Shown here piece by piece: positions 263-63,275 of a stretch of DNA of 64,000 bases. Under the pieces are notes generated by a model. The model ran no database searches. It saw only the letters and a list, made by a program, of their open reading frames with translations, and had not been told where the DNA came from. Source of the stretch: Cyanidioschyzon merolae (taxonomy: Eukaryota); the NCBI GenBank assembly GCA_000091205.1, contig AP006499.2, one strand, 5' to 3'. Positions within the stretch are counted from its first letter, which is position 1. Every line of letters starts with the position of its first letter. The translations under genes and the position numbers were made by a program.

Positions 263-2900
263 ACGTTGCCCGACTGCGTGCTCAGTGGGCGTCACTGCAA
301 GCAACGCTGGTACAGATCCACCGTGAAACCAGACTTTTCCAACGATTGTGAACGACGAAGTGGTGAGATATGTTTGTCCGGGTGGCGCTCGAAGCTAGCC
401 CGCACCAGGCCCTGGACTACCGGCATGCGTCTATTGCCAGTCGCATGCGTCATTTTTTCGTAGTGCGCATCAGAGCATCCACGTTCAGAACAAGAGACGA
501 TTTCGTTCAAAGTGCGGCGGAATCAGGGCCTCGTGAATACGTGGCGAGGTTGAGATACCTGCTGCGATGGTTTATTCGTTTGCAACTTTTGCTCGCCGCA
601 GACTACGCCTATTTCAGCGTAAAACAAGATAGGTTGCGTGATACGAATACATACGTTCAGGTGTTGGACGCTACCAGCTGTCATCAATACCAGCCTTTGC
701 TGGCGTTTTCTGCATCTGGATTGTTTTCCGATTCCTTATCTCCGACTTTGAATGCGTCGGTCTGTCGTTTCGCGCCACGTCTCCTGTCAGAAGTAGAAGG
801 ATGTCGACGGCAGCGTTAAGGTTCTACTTCGCTGCATCCGGCTGTTGTCAACAAATTGCATACACAGACGCGAGCTGCGATCTATGCTTCGCTTGTGATT
901 TGCCTGTTCTTTAGTTACAGTCTCAGTGCGCGCTTCGCAGCGGTACCACTCGAATGCAGGCAGGTGGTCGTTTCTGTCGACGGCACGTCATCCTCCTCCG
1001 AGAGGCATTCTGTGGTGCGCGAGGGCCTTCTTCACCGCTCGTTACGTGCCCTTGACGGAACCAGAAGGCTCATCTCGATGCTTTCCTCAGTTTCCGCGCC
1101 TGGTGCCATACTATACAAGGAGGGGCTTCTCCTTGGCTATGCTCTCTGCGAGTATTCTTCCCGCTGGACGTGCAAGCCCGCGCTATTCCACTCAATGGAT
1201 AATTTATGGGTTGCTATGTTACTAATGATGAAATATGTAATGCAACGAAAATCCAGAATTACGTGGAAGAACTCGAGCAGTGTCGATCCGTCCTTGCTCC
1301 CTTCGTGCACAGCGACGATTCACCCTCGCGTGGAAGCCATGTCGGCGATGACTCAAGTCCGAGTCCGCGACCCTTTTCCACCTAAACAGAGGCGACGGCA
1401 GCATCTGCGGCATATCCCATGACAGGTACAAGAAAGCTGTGGAATGCAGTTCCACCGATGGCAGCGACGAGATGGAGATTCTCTCTTCCAAACAGGGTCG
1501 ATTTTTTGTCGTGACAAGATCAGCGAACTCTCAGAATGAACTCATGTTGAAGCCGTCTAGGGACCGCGTCAATTTCTGGTCGTCAATCCAGTAGCGCGAA
1601 CAGTTGCGTTCACGAGTTGCCATGAAAAAGAAAGCTGAAGCACTTGAAGAAGCGTGATTTGGGCATCTTTTTCATCACGAACTGAAAGGGGTCGAGTCTT
1701 TTACTGTTTGACCAGATGATCAGATCAGTCGTTTTACGAAGCCTTTTTCAAGGGCGTCAGGAATCATCTTGGTTCCAATAATGTATCGAATTCCAGAGGC
1801 AGAGCGTCGAAGGCGTCTCTCCGAAAAGACCACCGTGCATCGAAAAACTGCCTGTGAATCCGTGAGCCCCGATTACGGTACAAAAATCATTGGGGTTGTA
1901 CGTCTAAAAAAGTTCGGAAAAATTCATTTGATATGAAAACAGCTAGCAGTTCAGTGTGCGATTTTAGTCCGACATGAATGTAGTATTCACGCCAAAAGGA
2001 AGCGTCTATTGCAGCAGTTTTCTCCGGAACGCTGCGTAATGCTAAATCTGGTTTCCGTCCTTTCCTAAAGCATCGCTATCAGTCTCAGCTTCAGAGCTGC
2101 GCCTCCATGTGGCTCCCAGAATGGAGAGCTGATTCTCTGCTGCCAATCTAATCGTGAAAACAATGGGCAGTACTTGCATTCGCCTCAGAGGGAGCCCCTC
2201 CAGGGAAGCGCATACGTTTTGGAAACGTTCAATCAGCGTGGCCGCTAGCTGAGGCACCGAACACTGCAGAACCGTTTCGGCGAGAAGTGGAGTGCTCATC
2301 CCCATCTTGGGAGTTTACACTCAGTACACGAACTCTAACAAGATAGCCACGCGAAGAGGTACACCCTCTGCACGTTTTCGACGGCACTACAAGTGACCGG
2401 CGATACCTCTATCCCAACGTTGCTTTTGAGCACGAACTTGCTCCAGCGCTGCGGCTCGTGAGACAAACGCTTCATTCGCTGGGAGCAGCATAATTTGAAT
2501 TTCACTCGGGGAAACGGCTCGTGGGGCACCTTCTTCGCTCTGCAGCCTTGCCAGCTGCAAAACTCTTCACAGGTGCGACTTGTTCTTGCGAGGAGCCCTA
2601 TCGCGCCGTACAGGTCGCTGGCTCGCGCTCCCGCAACTCGGAGCTCAAACTCTGCCTATTGAAACCTCACTTCTCTCCCAATTACAAGACCCCCAGATTC
2701 CACGACAAAGTCCCAGTGCCTGAAACGCGAGTCGGCACCAGTGATTCACCCAATTCACTCACTGCTTATCATGAAAGCTGGAGAGAAGGCGCACAGCGCG
2801 CGATCTCTCCATCGGCGAGCGTCAGCGAGCTGCTCGAGACGCGAACCCCTGTGGCAGAACGTCGATTGGGAACGTTCTTTGGTCTGGTGTGGCTCGAGGT

Positions 2901-3674
2901 ATGGCGTACCGCGGACTTCACGCCTTGTCACAGCCAGCTTATTTAGAGGACTTTATAAACTCAGTTTCGAACCTTCCCCAGGAGTTACGCGACAAATATG
3001 GACGAATGGGAGAGCTCGATGCGCTCGTGCAGCGGTTGAAGAACGAAGCTGACGCGCTCGTTCGGGAGCTGCTGCGAAAGCCTGGCAGTTCAGACCCCGA
3101 CCGAGGTCGCGACACCACTTCGCTGCAGCAAATGGGAACAAAACTTGAGCAGCTGCAAGCTCAGTGTGTAAAGCTCAATCAGGAGAAATTGCAACTCGCC
3201 GAGACGGCGTACAACACGGTGGACCAGCACGTGCGAGACTTGGACACAAAACTGCGGGAATATGAGGCATACCTGCGCCGGGAAGGCCAGTGGCCCGACG
3301 ACCTTCAGAGCCTGGTTGTGAACACCGACCATACGAAAATGGCGTCGATGAAGAACGCTGCTGCTGCTGCTGCGGCAGCACATACTGCAGCGGCTCCTGC
3401 CACGACAGCGCGCTCGACGCAAAAGGCGCCCTCCAAAGGTCAACGCAAGAGTGGCGAACCATCGACATTGCATATCATGGATGATATGCCGATCGATCCG
3501 AATGAACCGCGATACTGCTACTGCCAGAATGTCAGTTACGGGCAAATGGTTGCTTGCGAGAGCGGCGACTGTCCATACGAGTGGTTCCATTTCGAATGCG
3601 TCGGCCTCACTGAACCCCCGAAAGGCGAGTGGATTTGTCCCGACTGCCGAGCCAGAACAGGTCGCGTTCGGTAG
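2901..3674 (+). CDS. ING: ING (inhibitor of growth) family PHD-finger protein
   Basis: N-terminal ING helix (YLEDFINSVSNLPQELRDKYGRMGELD). C-terminal PHD finger YCYCQNVSYGQMVACESGDCPYEWFHFECVGLTEPPKGEWICPDC. Track ORF starts at GTG 2889; the first ATG is at 2901. Contains a poly-Ala tract. Confidence 0.8.
   Translation: MAYRGLHALSQPAYLEDFINSVSNLPQELRDKYGRMGELDALVQRLKNEADALVRELLRKPGSSDPDRGRDTTSLQQMGTKLEQLQAQCVKLNQEKLQLAETAYNTVDQHVRDLDTKLREYEAYLRREGQWPDDLQSLVVNTDHTKMASMKNAAAAAAAAHTAAAPATTARSTQKAPSKGQRKSGEPSTLHIMDDMPIDPNEPRYCYCQNVSYGQMVACESGDCPYEWFHFECVGLTEPPKGEWICPDCRARTGRVR
3356..3379. repeat. (GCT/GCN)n microsatellite inside ING CDS encoding poly-Ala
   Basis: gctgctgctgctgctgcggcagca read directly. 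Confidence 0.85.
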
Positions 3675-4620: not shown

Positions 4621-5859
4621 TTAGAGACCGTTCACGGGGACGGTCGCCGGGGCGCGGGCTCGGAAAAGCTGGCAGCTCACGGTCAAGGGTCGCACGACCA
4701 CTGGTGTGTGTGGGGCAACCAAGCAGGCCATTCCCGGTGAAAGGCGATAACTGTGGTCGATCCCGTGTTGGGAAATTTGTGCCTCGCCTTCTACATCGAG
4801 CAGGATGGAATAACTTGCTGATGACTCTAAATGCAAGTCCGCGGATTCCTCTCCGTGGCGTTCCAGTTCAAGACACTCGAGTTCGAATTCGCAGACCGGG
4901 GCGAGGAAGCGATTCTGAGCATCCCGTTGCAAAATTTGCACCGGGTCTTTGCAGCGATACGTGAGCATCTTGCACAACGTCTCGACGTCCTTATGTTTGT
5001 CGGTCAGTCCCGCCCGAACAACATTATCGCTAGTCGCCATGATTTCCACACAGTCTCCCTCTAGGTACGCGTGTGGCTCATTCGGTTCGATGAAAATGGC
5101 TTGACCAGGTTCTAACCTCACATGATTGAGCAGGAAAGCAGCGAAAATGCCGGCATCGTTTGGGTACTGCTTGAGGAGTCGTAGCGCGAGTGCATGCTCC
5201 GCATCCAGAACATCGGCGGCCTCTAACCGCTGGCGGAGCTGGTGCGCTTGTTGCCGCGAAACGTCTTCGTTTCGCATGAGGGATTCGAAGAGTTTTCGGA
5301 GTCCGTCCGGTGCAGATGGTGAGGAGCAAAACGTTTCCGCATACGCCCCACAAGCGCCACGAAACTCAGGGACCTGCTTCAGTGCTCGGACTATCTCCGC
5401 TACTGGTCGAAAACCGAGGAGCGCCTCGAACTGCCCTGGTCCAAGGCAAACACACATTTCTGGCTTGTGGTTGCCGTCTTTGTAAAGCTCAGGAAACTGC
5501 TTATGCAAAACTTTCGCCAGCGCAATATCCGGGTGCGCCTGAATAGAAAGCGCCCGCTCCACGCTCAGCACTTTCAGAAGAAACGGCAGCGAGCCTGCAG
5601 GAACAAAGATTGAAACGGGAACGCTTTCGTTGGCCTCGGTAACGACGGAGGCCTCTCCAGACGGGTGCGCGCCGAGCCAGAGTTCCGCGTAGGAAACGGA
5701 CTCCGAGACTCGTTCCGACTCCAGTGTCCCTTGAGCGACTGCGTAACGGGCAACCCGCGACCCCATACCACGTCGACCCCAGGCGTAGGTCTGGACGTGG
5801 CCTCGCAGGAGCCAAATACCCTGCTGTTGGCGTTTCGCGTCCACGGAAAGTGCCACCAT
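4621..5859 (-). CDS. PMI: mannose-6-phosphate isomerase (phosphomannose isomerase, type I)
   Basis: ATG start confirmed (rc of 5857-5859). Motifs YAELWLGAHPSG, LSIQAHPD, EPNEPHAYLEGDCVEIMATSDNVVRAGLT match the PMI type I family. 412 aa. Confidence 0.8.
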   Translation of the reverse strand: MVALSVDAKRQQQGIWLLRGHVQTYAWGRRGMGSRVARYAVAQGTLESERVSESVSYAELWLGAHPSGEASVVTEANESVPVSIFVPAGSLPFLLKVLSVERALSIQAHPDIALAKVLHKQFPELYKDGNHKPEMCVCLGPGQFEALLGFRPVAEIVRALKQVPEFRGACGAYAETFCSSPSAPDGLRKLFESLMRNEDVSRQQAHQLRQRLEAADVLDAEHALALRLLKQYPNDAGIFAAFLLNHVRLEPGQAIFIEPNEPHAYLEGDCVEIMATSDNVVRAGLTDKHKDVETLCKMLTYRCKDPVQILQRDAQNRFLAPVCEFELECLELERHGEESADLHLESSASYSILLDVEGEAQISQHGIDHSYRLSPGMACLVAPHTPVVVRPLTVSCQLFRARAPATVPVNGL

Positions 5860-6821
5860 CTTGTGCAGATTAGAAACCCCAGAAGAAAAGTAACCGAAAA
5901 GAAGCGTAACGCGGTATGGTTAGATATTGAAGAACTCGTAGAATTGAATATGTGAAATGCTGTTGCCGCGTGAATGGCCGATGCGTTGAATCCTAGACAA
6001 AAAAGACACGTCATGCTGGAATGCCACATAGGCGCCCTCAGCGCACGCCCAAACGTTTTCAGGCTTTCTCGTGGAAAAACCGGTATACGCCGAGGACGAG
6101 TTTCACAGCGGCCTCACGGATAGTGCGAGCTGAGCGAACGCGGACTGGATTGTTCAAGGCGACTGCACCGAGCAGAAACGCGTTTCCCCGGGTAACCTGA
6201 ACCCCGTTGGAGCTCGCGCTCTGGCTTTCGTGCGCAGCCAAACGAGTCTGCAATCGCACCCGAGCTTGACCCAAGTATGTGTCCTGGTGCAGAGCGGTTG
6301 GACTTGGCGCCCGGAGCGACAGATCGACGCGAACGCGCAGTCGAGTGGCTCCTGTTCCAGTCTCGGTTGCAGGAGCACTCGAAGAGAGCGCCGCTGACGC
6401 GCCCTGTGGCCCGGAGTCCTCTCGAGGAGCGACTGCAGGCTTTCCTACCGGAGATGCAAGCTGAAAACGCAGCATTGTTTGAGAAGATGCGAAAAGGCAC
6501 AGCTGTCGCCGTCGATACTGACTTCAGCACAGCAGATGCGCCTGAGGACGAGTGCGATGTTCCAACTGTTGAAGTGCTTCTGGTCACAGCTTCTGCTCAT
6601 GCCCAAGATACAGTAGAAGCTGCCGCACCGCAACGTCTGGTGCAAGTTCTGGGCCAGGGAGACGCCGAGCAGTGCCTGATGACCGGTGAGCAACCTCGAG
6701 CGACGCCCATGGAGGCGCCCGTCGGCAAGGCTCCACATCCAGGTGCCGCTTCACGCATGCGGAAAGCGAACCGCCATGATGAGCCTTAGGGAATCGCTTT
6801 GGAAAATAAGAGGTTCTGCGT

Positions 6822-10722: not shown

Positions 10723-13700
10723 ATGACGGTGGAAGGCTCTTTAAAGGGCGACGCTGCTGCACCCGTGGCAGACGCGGAGCCTGCAGCGTCTCCTCGGAAC
10801 GAACCGGAAGCAGCGCCTGGTCCGCCCTCACCGGACACGTCGAGGCGACTCAACCATGAATTGGCGAAACAAAATGCAGAAGTTGCAAGAGACACACAGT
10901 GGTCGACGCGTCAACGCCTCAAGTACCTGGTTTTGAGGTACGATATCTTCGCACACTTTTTATCGAGCGGATCACTCGCGAAGCAGAAACTTGTGGAAGC
11001 TGCCGGCTCCGTGGAAACCGCTTCTCCCGGAGAAGGAGCAGCGGGAGGTACTCCCGGTCGGCGTCGTCTGACGGAACGCGAAGAGGACGCGCTCCTGCTT
11101 GAAGCGGACGAGGAAGGGCATAGCGAGTCGGTACACTTGACGGTGCAGCCACCAGGCATACGTGGAACGATGCGGCCATACCAGATCGAGGGCCTAAACT
11201 GGCTAGTCCGACTGCATCAGCACGGCATCAACGGCATTCTTGCGGACGAAATGGGTCTCGGCAAGACGCTGCAGACCATTGCCCTGCTAGCGTTTCTGAA
11301 GGTATACAAAGGCATCCGCGGACCGCACTTGGTGATCGCGCCCAAGTCCACGCTCGGGAACTGGAATCTGGAGTTTGAGAAATTCTGCCCAGATTTCCGC
11401 GTCGTTCGTTTTCACGGGGACCAGGAAGAGCGAGCCCGAGTAGCCGCGTCGCAGCTCATTGTGAATCGGTTTGACGTTTGCGTTACCAGTTATGAGATTG
11501 CGATCCTTGAAAAGGCGGTGCTGCGTAAGTTTCATTGGCGTTATCTCATTATTGATGAAGCGCACCGCATCAAGAATGAGAACTCAGTACTCAGCCAGGT
11601 GGTGCGCATGTACAATTCTCAGAATCGTCTTTTGATCACCGGTACACCGCTGCAAAATAACTTGCATGAGCTCTGGGCGCTGTTGAATTTTCTGCTCCCT
11701 GATGTGTTCAGCTCTTCGGAGGATTTCGACGCCTGGTTTGAGCAAGTAGAGGGAACCACTGAGGAGGACGCCAAGGCAGAAATGGTTCGTCAATTGCATG
11801 CCGTTCTTCGGCCGTTTCTCCTGCGTCGCCTCAAGTCAGAAGTAGCGCGAGAGCTGCCGCCGAAAAAGGAGAGAATCGTATTCGTTCGCTTGACGAAAAT
11901 GCAGCATGAGTTGTATCGGTCCCTGCTTAAGAAAGATGTGGATGCAATTAGCGGGCAAGGCGGCGACCGCGCTCGACTGCTGAACATCCTAATGCAGCTG
12001 CGCAAGTGCTGCAATCACCCGTATCTATTCGAAGGCGTTGAAGATCGCACCTTGGATCCGTTTGGTGAGCATGTTGTGCAGAACAGTGCAAAATTGGCGT
12101 TGCTAGACAAACTGTTACCTCGCTTGCGCGCTGAGGGGCATCGGGTTTTGATCTTTTCTCAGATGACGCGTATGCTGGACATTTTGGAGGACTACTGCTG
12201 TGAGCAGATGCGAGGGTATCCGTACTGCCGTATCGACGGCTCGACGGATAGCGAAACGCGCGAGCGCATGATCGAGGAATTCAACGCAGAAGGAAGCGAC
12301 AAGTTTATCTTCTTGTTATCGACGCGCGCCGGGGGTCTCGGCATCAATCTGGCCTCAGCTGATACCGTGATTCTGTATGACTCAGACTGGAATCCGCAAG
12401 TTGATTTGCAAGCGATGGATCGTGCCCACCGCATTGGACAGAAGCGGCCTGTTACGGTGCTGCGTCTCATTTGTGAGTCAACAGTCGAAGAGCGCATTCT
12501 GCGCCGAGCCTTAATGAAGCTCAAGATAGACAACATGGTCATCCAGCAGGGCAGGCTGGTGGAGGGCCAGAAAGCGCTTGCTCGAGGCGAAGTGCTCGAC
12601 ATGATTCGATTCGGTGCAGATTCCTTCTTCCGAGCGGACGCACAAGACTTCAAAGACGAGGACCTGGATGAAATCCTGCAACGCGCCGAAGCAAAGACCA
12701 AAGAGGTAACCGAAAGCATGGAAGAAGAGGCTCGGAAACGGAGCCAGCATGGGCTCAACCTCATGGATTTCAAAATGAGCGATGACGTCGGCTCCGTCTA
12801 CCAATTCGAGGGAAAGGACTGGTCGGCAGAGGCAGCGTCATCGGCTAAGAATTTCTTCTTCCTCGATGTGGGCAAGCGAGAGCGCCGGAACACAATCAAA
12901 TCCTACGATGAAGCGGCCTACTTCCGCGAAGCACTGTATCACGGCGGTGCCAGCGGCGATGTAGGTAGCACCCAACCACAACCAAAGCAGCGCATGCGCC
13001 TGCCGCCCGAACCCAAAGTCTATGACTGGCAATTCTTCAACGTCGATCGCATCATGGAGTTGTACGAGAAAGAGCGCCAAATAATTGATGAATACAATCG
13101 AACATGCGAGAATCTGACTGAAGATCAGATGCCGCCGGAGCCGGAGCCTCTTTCGCCGAGCGAACGTGCGGAGCTCGAGCGTCTGCTTCAAGAAGGTTTC
13201 AGTAACTGGCGGTATCGCGAGTTCCAGCAGTTTCTGCGGGCTTGTGAGCGCCACGGCCGCCACAACATAGAAGCGATTGCTGCCGATCTCGCACAGGTGA
13301 AAACCTTCGACGAAGTTAAGGAGTATGCGGAAGCGTTTTGGAGACTGGGTCCGGACCATATCCGTGACTGGCCACGCCTCCTTGAGCAGATCGAGCAAGG
13401 TGAAGCACGTGTGGCCAAGCGGGAAGAGATGGAGCGAGCGCTGCGGAACAAAATAGCACGTTATGCGGATCCATGGAACGAGCTCGAGTTACCCGCTTCT
13501 GTCCAAGGTAAGGTGTTCTCCGATGAGGAGGATCGCTTCCTTCTCATTATGGTGAATAACCTCGGTTACGGACGCTGGGAGGAGCTCAAGATGGAAATTC
13601 GTCGCAGCTGGCGTTTCCGTTTTGACTGGTTGATCAAATCTCGCTCAGCTGTAGAACTGAAGCGGCGTGTTGACGTCCTACTCCGAGCTATTGAACGGGA

Positions 13701-14046
13701 GAATGCCGAGTTCGAAAAAGCCGAAGCTGCAGCCGCGAATCGTAAGAAGCACGCCCAGGTTCGTAGCGTACGTCGCGTCAAATCCGAGGCAAGTTCGAGC
13801 GAAAAGGAAAGCGCACACAACGACAGCCGCACCACAAAGCGTGCAGCGGCAGGGAAAGCGTCTGAGCAGAAGCCCACGGCAAACGCCAAGCGTAAGGCAT
13901 CGTCAAGCACCGTGACGACCTTGGACTCCACGTCCAAGCGCTCGAAACGCCCCAACACCGACTCCGTGACCGCGACGAGCGAGAAGCGCTCTACCGGACC
14001 CATCGAACGGTACGCTCGTCGCAAAGGCACTACAAAAGCAGCCTGA
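10723..14046 (+). CDS. ISWI: ISWI-type SNF2 chromatin-remodelling ATPase (SNF2_N, helicase C, HAND-SANT-SLIDE)
   Basis: Motifs GILADEMGLGKTLQTI, DEAHRIKNENS, LLITGTPLQNNLHELWALLNFLLP, DSDWNPQVDLQAMDRAHRIGQKRPV. C-terminal SANT/SLIDE region (FSNWRYREFQQF..., GYGRWEELK). Track ORF starts at GTG 10690; first ATG is at 10723. Confidence 0.9.
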   Translation: MTVEGSLKGDAAAPVADAEPAASPRNEPEAAPGPPSPDTSRRLNHELAKQNAEVARDTQWSTRQRLKYLVLRYDIFAHFLSSGSLAKQKLVEAAGSVETASPGEGAAGGTPGRRRLTEREEDALLLEADEEGHSESVHLTVQPPGIRGTMRPYQIEGLNWLVRLHQHGINGILADEMGLGKTLQTIALLAFLKVYKGIRGPHLVIAPKSTLGNWNLEFEKFCPDFRVVRFHGDQEERARVAASQLIVNRFDVCVTSYEIAILEKAVLRKFHWRYLIIDEAHRIKNENSVLSQVVRMYNSQNRLLITGTPLQNNLHELWALLNFLLPDVFSSSEDFDAWFEQVEGTTEEDAKAEMVRQLHAVLRPFLLRRLKSEVARELPPKKERIVFVRLTKMQHELYRSLLKKDVDAISGQGGDRARLLNILMQLRKCCNHPYLFEGVEDRTLDPFGEHVVQNSAKLALLDKLLPRLRAEGHRVLIFSQMTRMLDILEDYCCEQMRGYPYCRIDGSTDSETRERMIEEFNAEGSDKFIFLLSTRAGGLGINLASADTVILYDSDWNPQVDLQAMDRAHRIGQKRPVTVLRLICESTVEERILRRALMKLKIDNMVIQQGRLVEGQKALARGEVLDMIRFGADSFFRADAQDFKDEDLDEILQRAEAKTKEVTESMEEEARKRSQHGLNLMDFKMSDDVGSVYQFEGKDWSAEAASSAKNFFFLDVGKRERRNTIKSYDEAAYFREALYHGGASGDVGSTQPQPKQRMRLPPEPKVYDWQFFNVDRIMELYEKERQIIDEYNRTCENLTEDQMPPEPEPLSPSERAELERLLQEGFSNWRYREFQQFLRACERHGRHNIEAIAADLAQVKTFDEVKEYAEAFWRLGPDHIRDWPRLLEQIEQGEARVAKREEMERALRNKIARYADPWNELELPASVQGKVFSDEEDRFLLIMVNNLGYGRWEELKMEIRRSWRFRFDWLIKSRSAVELKRRVDVLLRAIERENAEFEKAEAAAANRKKHAQVRSVRRVKSEASSSEKESAHNDSRTTKRAAAGKASEQKPTANAKRKASSSTVTTLDSTSKRSKRPNTDSVTATSEKRSTGPIERYARRKGTTKAA

Positions 14047-14409
14047 ATAGCTCAGAACGTTTTCCACAGGTTAAGATTGATGCGTGGTACGAGTAGTCTT
14101 CACGGAAACGCGCAGTGATCGGCAATCAATGCGTCGATTCCCGTTCCGCTCGGAGAACCAGCCCCGCACATGGTGCTCAGCGTATCCGAGCGATCTGGTG
14201 CTGCCTCTATGCTGTGAACTTGTGGCGTCAGACATGGTGCTTAGGCGTTTTATGTCCAACGCAACGACATGGCGACGAATGCGTGTATGGAGCGAGCGTG
14301 CCGCTCTCGAGACGCGTTCCTTTCGAGCAGTGCTTCAACGCTGCCGACTACCTTGCCCACGATATCGTTGACGGACGAGGGTTCATGGAACAAGAATGGT
14401 TCGCCACCA

Positions 14410-14928
14410 TCAAGGGTAAATGTATCTACCCGCCCGCAGACGCTTACCAATCTTTTTCAACTGGCCGCCTGCTATCGACTTGCGCTTCTTTTTAGACGCT
14501 TCGAGGATCAGAGGTTGTCCCACAGAGTTAAATCGCGTCAGCTTCTCGGGTCTCGTGTTCAGCACCGCACATCGACTGATGTGGATGGCGGCGTTAAAGT
14601 CCCGGTTGATGAACTCCATGCTTTTGTCGCCTCTGCTTGATCTCATCAATAAAAGGATTCCTGGAACTAGGGCCTTCAGTTCGGGTTGCTGCTCTGTCAG
14701 CTTTCGGTGCTTTTCTATCGCCGACGCGCTCCGCGGCTTTTTCTCCATCTCGAGCTTCTGGAGTGCACGCCCCAGCTCATCCCTTGGATTGTTAAAATGA
14801 ATGCATTTCATTATGCCGTTAGGTAAGGACATCATCAGGGGAAGAAGGAAATCTCGAAGAAAGGCGACACATGCCCCGATGTCACCGAGTGCAGAACGCT
14901 TCAGCGAATCAGCCAGTGGAATGATCAA
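14410..14928 (-). pseudogene. TnpB/Fanzor-like nuclease, C-terminal fragment only (zinc-finger remnant plus RuvC-III)
   Basis: Fragment sequence ...LQKLEMEKKPRS...FINRDFNAAIHISRCAVLNTRPEKLTRFNSVGQ. About 45-50% aa identity by eye to the C-terminus of the 48523..49116 ORF. ORF starts at TTG and is preceded by an in-frame TGA two codons upstream, so there is no N-terminal RuvC-I/II. Confidence 0.55.
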
Positions 14929-16904
14929 TACGTTTCACGATAGAAAGCATTCGTTCTATGAGGTTCAACCGCGGAGTGCACGGAGGAATGAGGGGCAAAT
15001 CTACTCACATAGATGCGACAAGAGCCCGAACGCAACGGGAATGGTGAAATGTCACGTTGTCGAATAGAAGAACGTCGTCAAACGTCAGGGCGAAATCTTC
15101 AAGGATCCGACCAAGTGGTTGGTGCTGTTCTACGAGTCTTCTCTACGAGCGAACCCGAGGCCGCCAAGTGAATCCGCTGCAGCCGCACCAGACGAAGATA
15201 TCATCGTTCTGATCGAGTTCGATCGTCCATACAACGGGCTCCCTTATCCGCAAACACTCATGTCTATTCGGATCGTTTCGTCAAAAGCGAGTCTCAACGA
15301 CTGGGAAAAACAAACTGACCTCCCTATGCCTCATACCGATCGCGACGTTACAGGAATGCTGTAATCGTTGCGATTTCGGTGGAAGACGGCCGTGCGTGAC
15401 CTAGGACTCTATTGCGACTGTTTGCCAGTGTATCCTGGATTCCATGAATACGCTATTCTGAATCATTGACGCCTGTTGCGGCTACGATCGTCGCTTTTGC
15501 TTCCCGTCAGGTGATGAACACGTCGGTTTTCTTCCGTTGACCGCAAGCATTCATCGAGAATACCCCTATTTGGAGCAGAGCGCATCTACTTTCTTTCAGT
15601 GCTTCTCAACCGTCTGAGTACTGTGGTACGACGGACCTGAATCAGAGAAGCAGTCCTCCTTGCACTATGCAGGAATCAATATATCCTACATGCATTTCGT
15701 CTCCGATCTATTCCATACATTGCGTCGTGATTTCGGTCTCCTGCTATGCACTGCAAAACAGCATTCGATTCCACTTTGCGGGGATGAAACGAAATCGAGT
15801 TGGAGTACCACAGGAAATCGGCACGTCTCTGGCTCTGAATCGCCGTGCAACAAAGCCGAAATGCAAACTGCTGCCGATGGTACTGACGTGACCACTCATC
15901 CGCCAGCGTTGTGTTTCTGTCGATGGACGCTCGGTGTGATGCGCAACATCTGTTCGAGAAACCGGGCTGACGTCCATCTGCTCAAGGCCAGCTTTCGCGA
16001 TGCCGCCTGGTGCGCACGCCAGCTCCTAGTCGTCCTCCACGGGCACGAGTGACGGCATCCGACCTGGTCTCGTATCCGTAAGAAAAGCCGCTGCGGTCGG
16101 GTCATCGACTCGAGAACTTGCGCATCACGAGCGTTTTCAAATCGGGGCATACAACAGCGACGACGACACGCGGTTCACGCGGGAACGCAGAAAAAGGCCC
16201 AGGATCTACGAGGACAAGTTTGGTTACTGGAACATGGAGCCAGGACCTGGGACGATGGATGCTTTCCCGATCGCTGATATCAAGGTCGCCATCGGGTATC
16301 CGGGGTTCGCATCAACGGTTTGTCGATGAGAGAGACCTCAGGGCGTGTTGAAACAGAACGTCCACATTTCTGTCCTATATGGACATATGCACGCACAGCC
16401 ATGGAATCGTGTCGTGCACACGCGCAATCCTCGCCCAGATGGACAGGCGATATTCGCAGCAGCCGTGGAGTCCGAGCCTCCACATTTGCTCATCCGATGG
16501 AGAGCACCTTTTACAGCTGCCATAGATCCCGTAGATGTCATTTCGATCACGGATGCACGCCCATTGACGCGACGATGGCGACTGCAATCAAAGCGCAACA
16601 CAAACAGCGCCGATGGACGCGCAAGGCACATCCAGAGGACTGCCGTTCACCCCGACGATACCCCGCAACTGTCGTGCAAACGGTTCCACGTACACGTACC
16701 TGCCACTTCTCGGAGACAAACAGAAGTATCATCGATCGAAGCGAGCGCTTCTGATCGCGAACAGCGCCATGTCACCGATACAAGCTTCAACGAGAAGCGC
16801 GCACGACCTCTCCCCTCCCGAGATAACCGCACGTTCCGCATCCTATCCAGGCAGCAGGACAGCATCGCTGACAAAAGCGCGCGTTTCACAGGATCGCTGA
16901 AGCA

Positions 16905-16958
16905 ACCACCACCACCAGCACCAGCACCAGCACCACCACCACCACCACCACACCAAGC
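16905..16958. repeat. (CCA/CCAGCA)n microsatellite
   Basis: ccaccaccagcaccagcaccagcaccaccaccaccaccacc read directly. It generates the spurious PPPAPAP ORFs on both strands. Confidence 0.85.
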
Positions 16959-17119
16959 TACGATCTTTACGCCAAAAGGCAGGCAGAGATAAGGAGGCAG
17001 GCAGCCGCCTCTCAGCTCTGAACGATGACGCCATTGACGCATGCGATGAGGAGAAACATCCAGATTTGGCGCGCTCCGTATGCATGCAAGGCGCTGCGCT
17101 CGCATCCGTCTGGGTAGCG

Positions 17120-18007
17120 TCATGAGAGGAAGCGCGTGTTCGCTGCAGCCCACTCGAACAGCAGCGGATGCGCTTTATAAGCTAGATAGACGAAAACCAA
17201 CACCCCAATGTAGGCCGGGCGCAGCATCTCTTGTATTGCGACACGTGGCGACTGCTTCCCTTGCAGCATACTCCAGAAGGGCCAGAGGCTTGTTCGCTCA
17301 GCAAACGCGTCCCAAGTTGCGGCACCAAATCGTTGACGGAGTCGACGATCACCGTGCCAAGCGGCTATAAAGTGATGGCCGATGAGTGCACAACTAACCG
17401 TAATCGCCATCGAACTCCCTATCCAGGCGCCGTGGGCCAGGCACCAGAGGAACTGGCCCCACAGCTGCGGGTGGCGCGTCACACGCATGATACCCTGCTC
17501 GAAGAGGCGGACTGTTGGCCGCTTGATTGCGGATACTTGCGCTAGGTCCAGCGTCGCTGGATACAGAAACAGGAAGGATATGGCGCTTACGACCCAGACC
17601 ATTTCGTGAAAGAAAGGAAAATGTGCGGGGAGGTCCTGTTGCAACCAACTGAAACTGATGCCGTCACGTCGATGAGCTAGGAAGTAGGCCACGGTTACAC
17701 CAGCTGTTGGTAGGGACATGAACGCGAAGAGCACGCGGTAGAGACGCTCGCCGAGAAGCTCAGCGGCCCTGGGGCGCAATGCAGCACCACCAGAGTGCAG
17801 CACAGCGAACACGGTATACAGAACTAGCATTCTTAAGTGCGTGTCGAGGTTGACCTGGTCATGCCAACTCCAGTAGGTCGGCAGTAACCATCCGAGTCCG
17901 AAGAAAGCGCAACCCAGCCACAGTGCAACCTGTGACTCGCGTCGACCTCTTGATGTCTGTTGAGCTGCAGCGGTCTCTGCGGAATGCCCCGAGTCGACGT
18001 TGCTCAT
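17120..18007 (-). CDS. NnrU/ICMT-like polytopic membrane protein (RHP-motif family)
   Basis: C-terminal motif GIMRVTRHPQLWGQFLWCLAHG with several TM helices, resembling the NnrU / Z-ISO / isoprenylcysteine-methyltransferase fold. Track ORF extends to TTG 18460; I anchor at ATG 18007 (MSNVDSGHS...). An upstream extension to ATG 18193 is possible. Confidence 0.4.
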   Translation of the reverse strand: MSNVDSGHSAETAAAQQTSRGRRESQVALWLGCAFFGLGWLLPTYWSWHDQVNLDTHLRMLVLYTVFAVLHSGGAALRPRAAELLGERLYRVLFAFMSLPTAGVTVAYFLAHRRDGISFSWLQQDLPAHFPFFHEMVWVVSAISFLFLYPATLDLAQVSAIKRPTVRLFEQGIMRVTRHPQLWGQFLWCLAHGAWIGSSMAITVSCALIGHHFIAAWHGDRRLRQRFGAATWDAFAERTSLWPFWSMLQGKQSPRVAIQEMLRPAYIGVLVFVYLAYKAHPLLFEWAAANTRFLS

Positions 18008-19019
18008 GCGGCACGGGGACCGGCTCAGAGCGAACAAGAAAGCATTCGCTTCGTAGCGCCTGTAGTGATACGATCCTCGTTTTGCTGCTGCAGGTACTGC
18101 TGTTATGCCAGCTCGTGGCGCACAGAGGAGCCAGGATCGCCGTCGACTTGCGGTGAGTCCGACTGGAATAAAGCAGAGCGCCTTTGCTGGCATCTGACCG
18201 CTGAGGTGTCGCTTCTGAGGACTCGCCCGGAGGCGCTCCAATGCCTGGGCGCTCCGAACACCCCGGCGCTCAAGCGTGAAACCTGCGCGTACGCTAAACC
18301 AAGCGCAAAGAGCGGGGCGAGTTCCGGACCATGACGTCGCCAGAGGTATCAAAGTCGGCGCTTCGCCAGGTCTGCGTTTATGCGCATTCATCCTCCGTAG
18401 CACACGGCGGTCTTCGGTACTCATATCCGGATTGCAGCAAAGCGAACCTGGAACGCCCAATATACTTCAGTCTTTTCGGTATGAAACCAATGTAGTGCAA
18501 CCTATTCAGACTTCGATTTATCTGATCACAGGTTATCGGGTCCGATACAAGTGGTTGGAAAGCGAATTTTTCGCAGCGCTCGCACACAACCCGTCGCTCC
18601 AAAGCGTTTCTTCACCGTGTTCTGGGCAGTTCGCGCGAGCGCTGCTCGCTCTCCGGGACCCTGACTCGATACGTGCCGTCTCTTGCGCGCTCTGGACGCT
18701 TCTTCTCACGAGAAGCACCGCTGAGGCACGCTGTAAAGCGCAACACGCTAGTGCGAAGCGCTGGAACCGTCACTCTCGAAGCGCCTCCTGAGGGGAAACG
18801 CTTTTCGATGCGCGTTCCGCGAGCCTCCTTCGAAAAGATAACGCAATCGAACCTATTCTTCTACTACTCGGGTACCTCGGAAAGCACCGTTCGAGTTCGT
18901 CTAGTGTTCCCAAAAGTTGACCCGAGTCCCGCCTCGGGCTCCGCTGGTGAGGCAGCAGGCAGTAGCGGGAACGGCGCGACGCGTTTCGCCGCCCTCGCTG
19001 TAGCCAGCTTGCGCCATAC

Positions 19020-24752: not shown

Positions 24753-25127
24753 GAAGCACGTTTCGTAGGTGCTCAGCCCTATTGAATGATGATGTATCAT
24801 GAGCGTTCATGCAGAAAGCACGTTTCGTAGGTGCTCAGTCCTATTGAATGATGCAGTATCATGAGCGTTCGTGCAGAAAGCACGTTTCGTAGGTGCGCAG
24901 CCCTATTGAATGATGAAGTATCATGAGCGTTCATGCAGAAAGCACGTTTCGTAGGTGCTCAGCCCTATTGAATGATGCAGTATCATGAGCGTTCATGCAG
25001 AAAGCACGTTTCGTAGGTGCTCAGTCCTATTGAATGATGCAGTATCATGAGCGTTCGTGCAGAAAGCACGTTTCGTAGGTGCTCAGTCCTATTGAATGAT
25101 GCAGTATCATGAGCGTTCGTGCAGTGC
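24753..25127. repeat. minisatellite, 62-bp unit x about 6 copies
   Basis: Unit gcacgtttcgtaggtgctcagccctattgaatgatgcagtatcatgagcgttcatgcagaaa. The anchor 'gcacg' recurs at 24756, 24818, 24880, 24942, 25004, 25066 (period exactly 62). A few point differences between copies. Confidence 0.9.
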
Positions 25128-28100
25128 CCAGGCTGTCCGTTTCCTGAGTCTCGACGCGACGCAACTGCCGTGCTGGATTGCTGATCCGTTCGACTCTAGT
25201 GCCTGGTTCCAGACTTCAAGAATTCCCGCTCTTCACTGATGTTTTGTCATCGAAAGTCGTTACCGATTCAGCCCAGTATCCACTTTGAATACGAAATGAT
25301 TCCCTCGAATGGTCGCTCTCGATACAAAGTTGCTGGATGCTCCCGGAGCACGGAATATTCCCGGATATGTTGATCGGAGCGCTCTTGTCGTGATGCAGAA
25401 TGTGCTTATGTGGATGATTGCTGGTGCCAGCACAACATGGCAAGCCTCTCATCATCGATTATCTCCCTGTCTGGCACTCGGTCGGCTCACCGTAGACCAC
25501 CCGGTGTGTCGGGCTGTGTTCCAATTTCTTTTTCTCCAGCAGTTTCAGCGTGCACTCGAGCGCCTCGCATCTGTACTGCATCATGAACGCATCCATGAGA
25601 ATCTTCTGGAATCGATTCCTGCATCCGCTCGACGCGCTCTTCGAAGGGCCACTGGTGCAACCGATGTTTGCTATAGAGTGCCCATCGCCAGAAGCTACCA
25701 ACAACGGTCGACACGACTAGCAGGTCATTTTCTTTTGCAAGTCCTCAAACAAAAAGTGGTGAATGCGCGCTTCTTGCTTCCGTGGAGCGTAAATCGTTGG
25801 CGGCTTCAGTTGCGTTTGGCGTGCCCTTGGTCGAGATCGTCCGCAAGAGCCGTTTGGACGCGTATGCACGCTCTCGTAAAATAGAGCGTACAAAGCATCC
25901 GCCGCTGCACACTCGGGTGCGTCGAGCAGCGAGCTTATTCCTCATGCCGTCATTCCAAGTGTTGGTATGTGTCCAGGAGTCTGCCATGCGCGAGGTTTGG
26001 CGATCACGTGCCCTGGAACAGTTAAGCGGTATCACGTTCCTTCCTCTTGAGGTCTTTGGTTGCGTCTTCGTGATCTAAACGCACAGCAACTGCGACGATG
26101 TTCTTAAACTCAAGAAGCCCGCTCACCAGAGAATCTTTCTACCTTGAACGGTAACCAGTGGGTTGCTTTGTGTCACGTATGCCAGTGCTTCCCAAAAAGC
26201 GCATGCAGACTGGTATTCCATTGGTCTGCACCATCCTGATAAACTGCTTCCTGTTCCTTGCTGTAACCGAGATACCTTGAACGAACGCCACCAATGCTCT
26301 TCACAATAATATCCCTGAGCTTCATGCATGCTCCTAGGGACCAGCCGTCGCTCACTAAGGAGGCGACACCGCACAGCGCAGTACAGAAGTACATACGGTG
26401 ATGTCATGGACTTGGATCTGAAATGTAGGGACTCAGTTACGGGGATACTTTGGGATGCCTGGGCGCTCGCATATGGAGGCTAGGACCATTTTGCTCTGAT
26501 TTTGAAGCTTACGATTCAGGTTTAGGTAGCAGGGCAAGATGCAAGGAAGGCAGGCATCACCTGGCAAGTATCCTATGGGTACAGCGTCCGTCGATGCGAG
26601 GCTATGAACTACCCGATGCGCGTGGACGGTGAGAAACGACGCTCGCTCTGGTAAAGAGGTCACTTTCGAACTCGCTACCACCTCGAGCTCTTCCGTCGCA
26701 ACTTGCGCATTATTCGGCTTCATCGCCACCCGAAGAACCCGTTGCAAAACTTCACATTGTTCTTGCCTACGAAGACGAGGCCACCAAGGGCGCAACGCTG
26801 ACAGCGTGCGCTTCGTGAAGCGCTCGAAATTGACCCGCATCTGTCCTTGGTGTTGATGTTGTTCTTGTACTTTTTCGTATCGTAATTGGAGATACTCCGA
26901 TTGGCGTCACGATGCGACCATACGACAAGCTATTCAGGGCGACACGAGCACGACTCTACGATGCTATGATCAGGCTGTACTGCATTCCGCGTCCCGCGAG
27001 TCAGTTGTGTTGTCGGATGCGGGTTTCGTTGAAGATTTCTCGCGTTATGTGGGTATCATTCAGTTCTGTGTCAGGAAATGCTGCGAATCGTTGTTTGGCG
27101 AGCTGTTCCATGGCGAGACAAACTGGGTGAGCCTTCTTCGATCGAGAAGCTACGCGACATGTGATGATGTCATGCATTCCACGTTTAGGAAGATGCTCCC
27201 GGTTGATGTGTTTGAATAAGAAGACATTGACAAAGGTTTCAGACTGATCTCCGCAATGCGGCAGGTTCTCCTGTCCTATGCCTCCGCGGTTCGTTTTCAT
27301 AAGGATCCTCCTCTTCCATCACAAGTGATCCCTTTTTCTCTTTCGCTTGGCGGCGTAGCATAGATATGATCGCTAGACACCATATCGGGTTATTTTTCGA
27401 GCGATTCAGACGCACTGGGCGGACAGTGCCACTGAAACCCGCATTTCGTATGCATATATATAGATATGTAGTATACCCTACGAAGCTTGCCGTCACCTTT
27501 CCGGTCGCGAGCACGCCCACGGACTGAAGCGCACTTCTGCGGTTCCTCACCTGCTCGGGCAGACGACCGACCCAGCAGAGCAGAGCTCATGAAATTAGAG
27601 AAGCAATTGCCCAAGAACTGCGTTACGGATGCAATCAACTCGATGATCGATGCAAGAGCATCAATGGTGCATGTGACAACAGCGAAAACGCTTTCAACTG
27701 GATTGAGTCGTAGAGAGTACGCTGGGAAGCTGTGTCGGTTTAACGCCAACCTCAGCTGCATGCTCTTTGACCTCTTCTGCGTGATAGGAAACGATGAAAA
27801 CCATGAAGAGTTCGGAAGAACTCGGTAATGGGCATTCACGAAGCGGTTCCCGACGAAGATTTTGCCGTTGAACGATCCTAATCGTTGAAGGCTATCTAGG
27901 CGACCACACTGGTGATCCGCTAACTGGGCCGCTGTTGTCGGCATGCTCGCGTGCCTCTTCTTCACGAAAAGTGATTTGTTTTCTGTTTGAGTTCTCGCAT
28001 ACAGGTCAACCTTCTCATCCCTGTAAAGTCGTATCGAGTGAGACGAGCATGTATCCCTCTTGCAACAAGCGTTCGTTAGTCTGTACGCATTCAACAGAGT

Positions 28101-31871: not shown

Positions 31872-32090
31872 TTCGCTGTACTTGCATCTATTGGGTATTT
31901 CTATCCAATGTCAGGCAGCATTGCAGCTCAGTATCGTCATAGCGACTCTACTTGCATCCATTGGGTATTTCTATCCAAGGTCAGGCAGCATTGCAGCTCA
32001 GTATCGTCATCTCGACTGTACTTGCATCCATTGGGGGAACCCTATGCGATATACGGCAGCATTGCAGCCCAGTATCGTCATCCCTGGAAT
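31872..32090. repeat. minisatellite, 70-bp unit x about 3 copies
   Basis: 'cttgcatcca' recurs at 31881, 31951, 32021 (period 70). Unit cttgcatccattgggtatttctatccaaggtcaggcagcattgcagctcagtatcgtcatctcgactgta. The third copy is diverged. Confidence 0.85.
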
Positions 32091-43829: not shown

Positions 43830-44125
43830 TACACGACATGAATGCCGCTCACAGCACGTTGAGAGCAAGTGCGTATTTGGGCATCCCTAGCCTGTATATC
43901 AAAGCTCTGTCATACAAAAAAAGGAATGAACGCCGCTCATACCATGTTGAGAGCAAGTGCGCATCCGGGTATCCTTAGTCTGTGTCTCAACGCTCTGTCA
44001 TACAAAAAAAGGAATGAACGCCGCTCATACCATGTTGAGAGCAAGTGCGCATCCGGGTATCCTTAGTCTGTGTCTCAACGCTCTGTCATACAAAAAAGAA
44101 TAGACACCGCTCACAACGTTCCAGT
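43830..44125. repeat. minisatellite, about 88-bp unit x about 3.3 copies
   Basis: 'gaatgaacgccgctcataccatgttgagagcaagtgcgcatccgggtatccttagtctgtgtctcaacgctctgtcatacaaaaaaag' at 43924 and 44012 (period 88). A diverged copy precedes it at about 43840 and a truncated copy follows. Confidence 0.85.
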
Positions 44126-46415: not shown

Positions 46416-48012
46416 GTTTTAGGAAACAACCAAGAAAAGTTGCAGGAGAAACAAATGAGCGCACACGTGTGCTGTCTCCGAACACCGCTCCGGTACCAGC
46501 CCCATCGTTTGCGAACGGCCGCCTCTGGACAGCAGCGGCAACGGACAGCAGCGGCTAGATGGAGCGCTAAGAATCGGCCTTAACTGAGCGCGTTGATTTT
46601 TTCGATGACAAAACGTTTCACATGGGCCATGGATCTCATATCGCGGGACGGATCATGGTAATCAAAAAACGTGTATCATACTGCCACACGCTACCTCCGA
46701 GTCCCATTACTTATACTTCCCTCGGATATACTGATGGTTTCGTATGTTCTATCGATCGCCGATTACCTGCCGTGAGCACCCGCCGTAGCGCGTATACCAC
46801 CGATACGGATGCTGCACGGAGACAGAACGGCGTTGCGATACCACTGAGGGCGTCGGATCGATGTGTTTTTATAGGACATGGAATCGGAATCCCTTGCCAT
46901 TCTGGGAGCTTGCCGCAGCGGGGAGCGATATACCAGAAGACCACCGCGACCAGGGCGACGCTAAGACGCAGCATACCCACTCCTTGTTCCAGAAGAAACT
47001 GCGTTGTGGACGAGTTGCTCGGGTTTCGCTAAAGCAACAGCCAATGGGGCGATCATGCAACACAGGCCCGATAGACTCGTCCGGCTCGCGGGACCTTCCG
47101 CCCCGGGGGTAAACTATCGGCAATAAAGAAAGCCTTCCCCATTTTAACTGTTATCGCACAGGGGGAAGCAATCGTAATTTCGTTGCCAGTTAACGATTCG
47201 TTTCTGTTCCTTGTTCTATGCGGTGCGGTTGAGCAGCGCACCTGGAGATCTGGCGGTCACGAGATCGCGAAAAATATCGCACCTACCGCTTCAACCTTAG
47301 TCGATACGAGGGTGACCAGGATATTTACACCTACGGGGCCGTGAAGTACCTCACGAATCTGAAGAACCATTTGACGATGAACCTTGAATGTTTCATGATA
47401 CGCGCCGTGTTTGCGCTTTACGCGGGTATCTCTTGCAAGGGGATATGGGCGATTATCAATGGCATCACGAACGGTCGCAGGTATGAAGATGAGGTCGCAT
47501 TCGTGGACATGAGGGTATCAAACGGCAGCACGAATGAAGCTTCTGTGATCCGTGCGGTTATACAAGAGCACCGTGCGGTACTGGGGTTGGCGAATCCAAC
47601 AGACAAGATATCAGCGTTGAAAAAAAGATAAGGAAAGATACTATCGCCTCGTCCTGCGCTATTTTGTGTTTCTGGACCGAGAACTCGAACGCAAGGCACA
47701 GGTGGAGCTAAGTGAGGAAAAAAATGAAGAGTGGGAGAGACGGAAGGCTGCGCTTCTGGGGAAGCGCTTCAACGTGGTTCCAATGTGCAACATCAAGTCA
47801 CATTTTATGACTATCGGCTCCGGTGTCCTCTACGGCATCATGAGGGAGATCAGTCCCGAGTTTGATGTTAGCAGGGAGGAGTTCTCCGGTGAAGTCCGGG
47901 AGACGTACTGGAAAAATATCTTCAATTTCAAACGTCTCAAAATGAGTAAACAAAAGGTATTCACTGGAATGATCGAAACCGATGGGTAGCCATATGTGTA
48001 CACTATCGGCGA

Positions 48013-48486
48013 TTGAAGGCAGATCGTCCAGTTCCGCCCTCAGCTGCGCCCGTGACGAAGGATGCAGAAAACAAAGAGGCGGATTCTGCGACGCAGGAGG
48101 TCGAGGATTACGACCTTGTCGTTGACGCGGGGAAGGATGATGATGAGAAGAATGCGGATCCTGTGATGCAGAAAGTGCAGGATAACGACTTTGTCGTTGG
48201 CGCGGACCCTGGGAATACGAATATCATGAACATTGCAGTACCCAGGCGTGGGGAAGATGGTACTGACGGTAATTTACGTCAGAAAGACATGCGTTTTTTC
48301 AGGTTCTCGAGAGCGAGATACTATCGGGAATCGGGAATCATGAATGCGAGGAAACAATTCGAGATATGGAATGCAGGAGTGAAGGATCACCTGGAAGCGA
48401 TGAGCGAGGTGACTAGCCGAGGAGAGGACTTTAAAGCTTTTCGGAAATTCATAGAAGTTCGCATGGCGCACTGGGATGCGCTATGA
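48013..48486 (+). CDS. Fanzor/TnpB-like nuclease, RuvC-I-containing segment
   Basis: [18 protein letters not shown] matches the G-x-D-x-G RuvC-I motif of TnpB/Fanzor. ORF begins at TTG. Separated from the next segment by a single TGA. Confidence 0.5.
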
Positions 48487-48522
48487 GAGGAGTATACCAA
48501 GCCCCGGTGGGCTCGTCTGCGT

Positions 48523-49116
48523 ATGAATCTGTACTCTGGGAGGCAGCGGGCATTTGCCAACTTTTCCAATGAGTTGAGTGCCCTGAAGGACGACGAGGGT
48601 CAGAGGCTCGTTGTAGCATACGGAGCAGGGCACTGGAAGACCCAAAAAGGGACTACGGCAGCTCCAACAACAAGAACGTACAAAGAGTGTGCGCAGCGTT
48701 TGGTTACAGTATCGATCGTTGAGTTCCGAACGTCCTATACACACCATGAGCTAGGGTGTATACTTCAGAAGGTGGAGATGGAAAAGTGCCAGAGGAGCCC
48801 TGAGGATATGAAAAAGTACGGACCGCTGACGGAGGAGCAAATGGAAAGGAGAGCGAAATTTCGTGGACTACTTGCATTAGTGAGTACAACCACCAACGGC
48901 ACGAAACGTACGGATTTTGTGAACCGAGACTTTAACGCCGCTGTCAATAAAAGGAGATGTGCGGTGCTGGAAAGTAGACCTTCAGAGCTGACAAGAGAGA
49001 ACTTTGTTGGACAATCTCGAAAATATGAACTATACGAGAAAAAATTGGAAGCAGTAGTGGGTGGCCGGTCCAAAAAGACCGGGAGGCGACTGCACCTCGG
49101 GAAGCGTCTTGTCTAG
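48523..49116 (+). CDS. Fanzor/TnpB-like nuclease, RuvC-II / zinc-finger / RuvC-III segment
   Basis: VVAYGAGHWKTQKG (GNW-like), VEFRTS (RuvC-II Glu followed by TS), NRDFNAAVN (RuvC-III). Lys/Arg-rich C-terminus. Confidence 0.55.
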   Translation: MNLYSGRQRAFANFSNELSALKDDEGQRLVVAYGAGHWKTQKGTTAAPTTRTYKECAQRLVTVSIVEFRTSYTHHELGCILQKVEMEKCQRSPEDMKKYGPLTEEQMERRAKFRGLLALVSTTTNGTKRTDFVNRDFNAAVNKRRCAVLESRPSELTRENFVGQSRKYELYEKKLEAVVGGRSKKTGRRLHLGKRLV

Positions 49117-49190
49117 GGCGGGCTTCTCGCCACTACTGTACACCGGGCGCGACTCGTGCGGAACGCTCACTCACTCTCTCTGGAACCTGT

Positions 49191-62949: not shown

Positions 62950-63275
62950 AAGCGATGTTGTCTACGAGCAGAACAGCAGAATGTGCGAAGCAGAAGGTGT
63001 CATGAAAAATGCGTCGACAAAGGATGCGCTATCGAACAATGCTGCCCGTTGATATGCGAAGCAGAAGGTGTCATGAAAGATGCGTCGACAAAGGATGCGC
63101 CATCGAACAATGCTGCCCGTTGATATACGAAGCAGAAGGTGTCATGAAAAATGCGTCGACAAAGGATGCGCTATCGAACTATCCTGCCCGTTGATATACG
63201 AAGCAGAAGGTGTCATGAAAGATGCGTCGACAAAGGATGCGCTATCGAACTATCCTGCCCGTTGATCTACGAGGG
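62950..63275. repeat. minisatellite, 71-bp unit x about 4.5 copies
   Basis: 'cagaaggtgtcatgaaa' recurs at 62991, 63062, 63133, 63204 (period 71). Unit gcagaaggtgtcatgaaaaatgcgtcgacaaaggatgcgctatcgaacaatgctgcccgttgatatgcgaa. It creates four near-identical 61-aa ORFs in the track. Confidence 0.9.

Follow-up and report, generated by a model that had tools for sequence, protein, structure and literature searches.

Background

Among the open reading frames (ORFs) of a 64,000-nucleotide stretch of Cyanidioschyzon merolae DNA (contig AP006499.2; this whole stretch is called the window below), one of 172 codons on the minus strand raises the question of whether it is a gene or the debris of a transposable element and, if the latter, what kind of debris. 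A preliminary description had read it as the second, diverged and truncated copy of a Fanzor/TnpB family whose other copy lay at 48.5-49.1 kb. Fanzors are RNA-guided nucleases, a biochemical role that has been known since 2023.

One Fanzor1 family, CMe-1A, has been tabulated for C. merolae; it has about 150 members, each with an identity of about 80% to the consensus, and some of them are still intact (Bao & Jurka 2013, Mob DNA 4:12, PMC3627910). The CMe-1A consensus measures about 3 kb and lacks TIRs; its TSDs are given as undetermined and its class as unknown, and its 5' 635 bp are common to a short element of 70 copies, TE-N2_CMe (PMC3627910).

The analysis reported here indicates that the region is very probably a non-functional internal-deletion relic of an old Fanzor1 element in the C. 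merolae nuclear genome. We describe the locus and its relatives in the window, the assignment of the family, the parts of the element that are left and the evidence on constraint, and we weigh three other readings where the evidence bears on them.

Genomic setting of the reading frame

The relic lies in a region of about 3 kb between the 3' ends of two convergent genes, those encoding ISWI and an NnrU-domain membrane protein. The reading frame and the annotated genes are the following:

10723-14046: ISWI, an exact match to BAM82218 of C. merolae 10D
14410-14928, minus strand: the 172-aa ORF as flagged, with a TTG start
17120-18424, minus strand: NnrU-domain membrane protein, an exact match to BAM82219 (Pfam E 3e-32)
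49789-53376: Ca-ATPase, an exact match to BAM82230

BAM82218 and BAM82219 are consecutive accessions, and the 3-kb gap that holds the fragment thus carries no annotation. An in-frame TGA stands two codons ahead of the TTG, where the preliminary description had put a stop directly before it, and the first ATG is codon 32. The gap also contains an (ACC)17 microsatellite (16905-16955), which is the source of poly-Pro and poly-Trp/Gly runs in spurious ORFs.

The resemblance to the C-terminal third of the 48.5-kb ORF, put by eye at roughly half of the positions, holds on formal alignment. In BLASTP, residues 51-168 of the flagged ORF match residues 76-194 of the plus-strand ORF 48523-49116 with 57 identities in 119 aa (48%, E 1e-32). 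Smith-Waterman alignment of the two ORFs gives a score of 262; 1000 shuffled versions of the query, the flagged ORF, score 29.5 +/- 4.8 and at most 57 (z = 48.6), so that shuffled controls come nowhere near the match. At the DNA level 14436-14780 matches 48746-49093 with 65.7% identity over 350 bp, and both ends of the match are sharp. The fragment is 44-54% identical to 23 Fanzor1-family proteins, the closest of the 283 proteins fetched being 54% identical. These searches returned no nearer intact relative, and the ORF as such matches only the same locus in other samples.

Four Fanzor1 copies in the window

The fragment is not the second of two copies, as had been supposed: the window holds four Fanzor1 copies. 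The fragment is copy 1, and the others are:

25363-27249, minus strand: copy 2, very diverged and nearly full length (HMM positions 18-620), in at least nine frame pieces
47268-49140, plus strand: copy 3, CMe-1A-like, the reference copy, with two frameshifts and one in-frame stop
61448-62466, minus strand: copy 4, likewise very diverged, limited to the C-terminal half (HMM positions 322-637) and carrying the motif DLNTAINI

Copy 3 is a pseudogene, with its frameshifts near 47628 and 47986 and its in-frame stop at 48484-48486, and it lacks about 1.1 kb of 5' sequence (the N-terminal 120 aa and upstream) that another CMe-1A-like copy, L003, has at its positions 5265-6362. At the protein level copies 2 and 4 are 26-36% identical to the homologues fetched and 29-44% identical to one another. 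The divergence of the two copies then seen had been taken to imply an old, multi-copy element family, and this is upheld by the four copies in 64 kb, by many paralogous contigs and by the roughly 150 copies already published (PMC3627910). The fragment thus belongs to a family with the multi-copy, transposon-borne distribution of Fanzor/TnpB.

Several repeats and an insertion were noticed as well. In the CMe-1A-like Fanzor, the linker that precedes RuvC-I contains an internal acidic repeat of some 75 bp (48079-48130 and 48154-48205, 81% identical); the number of such repeats varies among homologues, and the homologue P0001 has several more. In a further CMe-1A-like copy, L001, an RVT_1-encoding insertion (400-3423) splits the 5' region of the element, the sequences on its two sides (1-399 and 3424 onwards) being contiguous in L003. 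Minisatellite-like arrays are found about 240 bp 3' of copy 2 (24754-25124, 62 bp x6), about 500 bp 5' of copy 4 (62986-63280, 71 bp x4.2), and at 31879-32081 (70 bp x2.9) and 43838-44097 (88 bp x3).

Assignment of the family to Fanzor1

Profile libraries say little about the family. No Fanzor/TnpB match came from the local Pfam when the fragment, the copy-3 ORFs and six full-length homologues were submitted, and the only precomputed Pfam family of the full-length homologues, in a newer Pfam release, is a weak DUF8286 (PF26935). Sequence searches of the PDB gave no significant Fanzor, with SpuFz at E 0.8 for a single sequence and none with a profile, and a comparison of structures was therefore needed.

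Homologues are plentiful. The joined frames of the 48-kb copy retrieved 89 from a protein database, the best 74% identical and the full-length relatives reaching down to 26%, and a profile search of 1.84 billion representatives returned 4693 clusters at E <= 1e-3. Eleven full-length members have in common the motifs GxDPG, VVAYGAG followed about 35 residues on by DEFRTS, and NRDFNAAINI. In the numbering of P0070, a full-length homologue, D398 (GxDPG) and E569 (DEFRTS) hardly vary, and D636 (NRDFNAA) does not vary at all. By analogy of motifs these three residues would form the RuvC catalytic triad, with the RuvC-II glutamate displaced downstream, which agrees with the 'alternative conserved glutamate' that Fanzors carry (Jiang et al. 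2023, PMC10530073).

The fold test was run on P0070, a full-length relative, and not on the fragment itself. An AlphaFold2 model of P0070, computed from the 11-member alignment (pLDDT 76.7, pTM 0.66), was compared with the PDB by Foldseek; Fanzor1 structures occupy ranks 1-7 (E 7e-17 to 8e-15, TM 0.45-0.67 along the whole length), and Cas12f comes next. The top matches are SpuFz (9ceu/8gkh), PpFz (9cf1) and GtFz (9cer), from Spizellomyces punctatus, Parasitella parasitica and Guillardia theta respectively. Judged by this predicted fold and by the conserved D...E...D motifs, the family of the flagged fragment is Fanzor1, in line with the earlier Fanzor/TnpB assignment, and the shared motif is not to be explained by an unrelated conserved host domain.

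SpuFz1 (PDB 8GKH, 9CEU-9CEZ), an RNA-guided DNA endonuclease, resembles the P0070 model in overall fold (E 7e-17, TM 0.59/0.64 over about 670 columns) and in its D/E/D arrangement, in which the glutamate has moved from the canonical RuvC-II strand (VVAYGAG) to DEFRTS. The two are, however, only 14-16% identical in sequence and are not linked by searches of sequence alone; CxxC zinc-finger pairs are not evident in the family of P0070, and the flagged fragment keeps less than one sixth of the protein. The likeness of Cas12f to P0070 is a distant one of fold (Foldseek E 2e-5 to 1e-3). Bacterial TnpB (IS200/IS605, IS607) and Cas12f have the RuvC-III motif xDxNAAxNI in common with the family, but the C. 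merolae element differs from TnpB in being eukaryotic and nuclear, in having no TnpA nearby and in matching none of the local Pfam OrfB models.

What is left of the protein

A profile HMM was built from the 11 full-length homologues and run with all filters off (--max), at E <= 10, on every six-frame piece of the window. Between 14.0 and 17.2 kb it matched 14509-14778, corresponding to positions 574-641 of 651 (domain E 3.7e-12). As the match is limited to these positions, GxDPG (RuvC-I) and DEFRTS (the RuvC-II glutamate) are absent, and the statement that the ORF lacks RuvC-I and RuvC-II stands. Read along the minus strand from the upstream side, the parts of the element are:

14812-14972, minus strand: segment X, 161 bp, the pre-ATG part of the element, recognised by identity to the paralogous contigs L008, L010 and L012
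14791-14811, minus strand: junction zone, 13 of its 21 bases alignable to the pre-ATG sequence of a paralogous locus
14413-14790, minus strand: Fanzor1 C-terminal coding remnant of about 126 codons, seen with BLASTP, the HMM, tblastn against eight homologues and alignment
14587-14607, minus strand: RuvC-III motif NRDFNAA, within the remnant, aligned to D636, N638, A639 and A640, all invariant in the family
14410-14412, minus strand: TGA stop of the remnant, polymorphic
about 14361 to 14409, minus strand: 3' untranslated end of the element, with homology to L008 clear to about 14389

Fanzor homology in the relic begins exactly at 'ELG', immediately after the lost DEFRTSYTHH, and extends to the natural C-terminus. 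Beyond the stop codon the likeness to other copies continues for some 20-50 nt; past about 14389 a weaker block, TCGnnnnnnAACG, is common to eight copies and reaches about 14361. The RuvC-III motif is present, as had been claimed, and its aspartate, D110 of the 172-aa ORF, is the sole catalytic residue left. The fragment is thus a Fanzor1 homologue, with significant homology that includes RuvC-III. It is not a functional Fanzor1: the RuvC-I Asp, the RuvC-II Glu and the RNA- and DNA-binding domains are missing. With two of three catalytic residues and all WED, REC and RNA-binding parts gone, the 172-aa ORF cannot be a nuclease.

Residues 1-50 of the ORF do not come from Fanzor coding sequence; they are a read-through of the pre-ATG region and the junction. 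The 172-aa ORF is accordingly a fortuitous frame, in which 50 codons of pre-ATG and junction DNA are fused to the Fanzor tail.

The suggestion that 14.05-17.1 kb as a whole may be the rest of a decayed element holds for segment X only. The HMM with --max at E <= 10, blastn at word sizes 7-9, tblastx and nhmmer found no more Fanzor in 14.0-17.2 kb except segment X, and nine non-Fanzor ORFs in the same interval gave nothing in Pfam. No homology to the remaining 14973-17119 was detected in anything examined.

A pre-ATG segment and a probable internal deletion

A scan of metagenomes with the ORF recovered the locus itself from other samples (L004-L007, with 99-99.7% identity) and, at the opposite end of the same 44.7-kb contig and in inverted orientation, a paralogue, L008. 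Nucleotides 1-161 of L008 are identical to window positions 14972-14812, that is, to segment X; L010 is likewise 100% identical to it, and L012 98.4%. About 50 nt past X, L008 enters a Fanzor start-codon region, with an ATG at 214 and the reading 'MKVGDPGG...', compared with 'MKKKVHDPGG...' in L001, and this region is 70% identical in DNA to L001 3640-3722. Further on, L008 has a decayed C-terminal part, 69-74% identical to 14389-14667 of the window, which contains stops and a RuvC-III that reads NRAFNAA (D-to-A).

X is joined to the ATG region in the same way in L008 and in five more contigs, L009-L013, one of which has two private substitutions in X. A chimeric assembly of L008 had been considered as the origin of its X and is ruled out by this recurrence. 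All the metagenome contigs break in or at X, as is expected of an exact repeat.

Because X lies directly 5' of a Fanzor start-codon region at the paralogous locus, it is the pre-ATG part of the subfamily's element, and copy 1 is for this reason internally deleted rather than simply 5'-truncated. The earlier term 'truncated' is right in that only the C-terminal end of the protein is kept; 'internally deleted' describes the copy better, given that the pre-ATG segment 14812-14972 is retained upstream.

It is unlikely that the relic is instead a simple 5'-truncated insertion, produced for example by abortive copying from the 3' end, with host intergenic DNA upstream of about 14790. Such an origin would agree with the lack of Fanzor homology upstream of 14790 and with copies 3 and 4, which are also without 5' sequence and have kept their 3' end; in three of the four window copies the 3' end survives and the 5' end is lost, and a 5'-truncating insertion mechanism could be at work instead. 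It conflicts with the position of 14812-14972 directly 5' of the start-codon region of the same Fanzor subfamily in L008 and L009-L013, and with the residual similarity, which goes on to 14792.

Under the preferred reading, an internal deletion, the intact element would have been about 3 kb long and would have encoded an RNA-guided RuvC nuclease, TnpB-like and roughly 600-750 aa in length. A deletion of about 2 kb would have run from some 30 bp upstream of the ATG to just past the relocated RuvC-II glutamate, and would have brought together, at about 14790/14791, a pre-ATG segment that spans at least 14812-14972 and the C-terminal ~126 codons with the stop and a short 3' end. The codons retained are those of RuvC-III and the basic tail, and the 172-aa ORF would have arisen as an accidental read-through of the fusion between pre-ATG and C-terminal sequence. 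We infer that the deletion was a single event, such as abortive gap repair or ectopic recombination.

The 161-bp tract is 98-100% identical between two inverted relics about 44.7 kb apart, while the Fanzor sequence adjoining it is 69-74% identical. We infer from this tract that the paralogue, 44.7 kb distant, has taken part in gene conversion with copy 1.

Divergence, subfamily and coding constraint

Compared with copy 3, L001 and L003, the fragment has an identity of 63-64% in DNA and 44-54% in protein, and those three are 82-85% identical among themselves; the earlier description of it as a diverged copy is thereby confirmed, and the difference between the two ranges indicates an older or separate subfamily. 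To the consensus of these three CMe-1A-like copies the fragment is 66% identical. Segment X has no detectable similarity to the upstream sequence of L001 or L003, and the 5' region of CMe-1A-like elements (L003 5000-6400) has no match in the window. The 66% identity to the consensus and the dissimilarity of X to the 5' regions both argue against strict membership in CMe-1A. On these comparisons, which place it indirectly, the fragment probably belongs to an older or separate subfamily.

CMe-1A itself comes from the same genome and the same protein family as the fragment and is likewise old, multi-copy, about 3 kb long and without TIRs, and copy 3, L001 and L003 show a divergence that fits the roughly 80% identity to the consensus described for it. 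The fragment differs from it in having another pre-ATG region and in being an internal-deletion relic instead of an intact copy.

Between the fragment and copy 3 the identity at codon positions 1, 2 and 3 is 0.67, 0.70 and 0.53, and dN/dS is about 0.37. Since third positions are the most diverged and dN/dS is low, much of the divergence must have arisen while both lineages were coding, as separate subfamilies.

Present-day variation looks different. In the four metagenome contigs of the same locus the variants within the ORF are S67C, G137R, D26E, L28P and M32T, all five nonsynonymous and none synonymous. At window position 14411 the stop is TGA in 10D and L004 and TCA in L005, L006 and L007 (three of the four contigs), which lengthens the ORF by eight codons. 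The exclusively nonsynonymous variants and the polymorphic stop indicate that there is no present constraint at the protein level.

That the 172-aa ORF is a domesticated or truncated gene, a functional small protein made from the Fanzor C-terminus, is hardly credible on this evidence. In its favour, all 172 codons are open, and the 119 Fanzor-homologous codons contain no stop and no frameshift. It is opposed by the polymorphisms just described, by the TTG start with no ATG before codon 32, by an N-terminal 50 aa that is pre-ATG DNA read through, by the unannotated state of the region in 10D, by database relatives of the ORF as such that are the same locus in other samples only, and by the stops and the D-to-A change in RuvC-III of the paralogue L008.

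Variable sites number 2 in the 378 bp homologous to Fanzor and 12 in the 548 bp of immediate flanks (Fisher p = 0.054). Some constraint, gene conversion or chance could account for the smaller number in the 378 bp. A first impression of depletion came from L005 alone, with 0 of 9 differences in 535 bp; it shrank when four contigs were compared, and is for this reason not used as evidence of function.

The 3' end and the guide-RNA reading

The part that the relic has kept bears on another reading, in which the locus is a solo fRNA (omegaRNA) gene, the ORF tail and the right end yielding an RNA that intact Fanzor1 proteins use in trans. Fanzor fRNAs come from the 3' region abutting the right end of the element (Jiang et al. 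2023, PMC10530073), so that the retained part is the one that would template them, and Chlamydomonas reinhardtii has 20 extra stand-alone fRNA copies (PMC10530073). Like the C. merolae relic, those copies are a Fanzor 3' piece without a functional nuclease gene; for the relic, the comparisons made here gave no sign of a conserved RNA structure.

A small hairpin lies in the tail, CCGGTC-N6-GACCGG in copy 3 (49065-49082, plus strand) and CCAGTT-N6-GATTGG in copy 1 (14447-14464, minus strand). It is retained in all eight aligned copies, mostly with wobble changes and with one double change, and it is without statistical support as an RNA element.

Besides the identity of the retained part, the hairpin and the marginally lower polymorphism of the segment (p = 0.054) speak for a solo fRNA. 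The fold z-scores are unremarkable (-1.27 for copy 1, -1.83 for copy 3), RNAalifold on the eight aligned 3' ends gives a weak consensus with a covariation term near zero (+0.07), the preserved stems sit in strongly conserved coding motifs, and Rfam gives 0 matches at gathering thresholds. In addition, the segment is just 63-64% identical to the CMe-1A-like copies, and the family's own fRNA has never been defined. Taken together, these results leave a solo fRNA gene very improbable, and a non-functional internal-deletion relic the preferred reading.

Implications

What was flagged is a decayed and otherwise ordinary copy from a transposon family that was published for C. merolae in 2013. Its value as a discovery is small, the Fanzor1 elements of C. 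merolae, their age and their copy number having been published then (PMC3627910). Annotators should mask the 172-aa ORF as the relic of a transposon and should not call it as a gene. The 3-kb gap between ISWI and NnrU is explained in part only.

Mildly new are the internal-deletion architecture, with its 161-bp tract that resembles gene conversion, and the several Fanzor1 lineages, much older than the published family.

A more speculative view, to which we give very little weight, is that about 14361-14790 has been kept as the template of a guide RNA, or as another cis or trans element, for the few intact Fanzor1 copies, and that the X tract reflects ongoing homology-directed repair between relics, triggered by Fanzor. 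If this were true, dead Fanzor copies would still be active, as substrates or as donors of guides, in a genome that is very compact and has almost no introns.

The window contains four relics of at least three deeply diverged lineages in 64 kb, compared with the single CMe-1A entry; Fanzor1 has therefore been in this small genome for longer, and in more layers, than that entry suggests.
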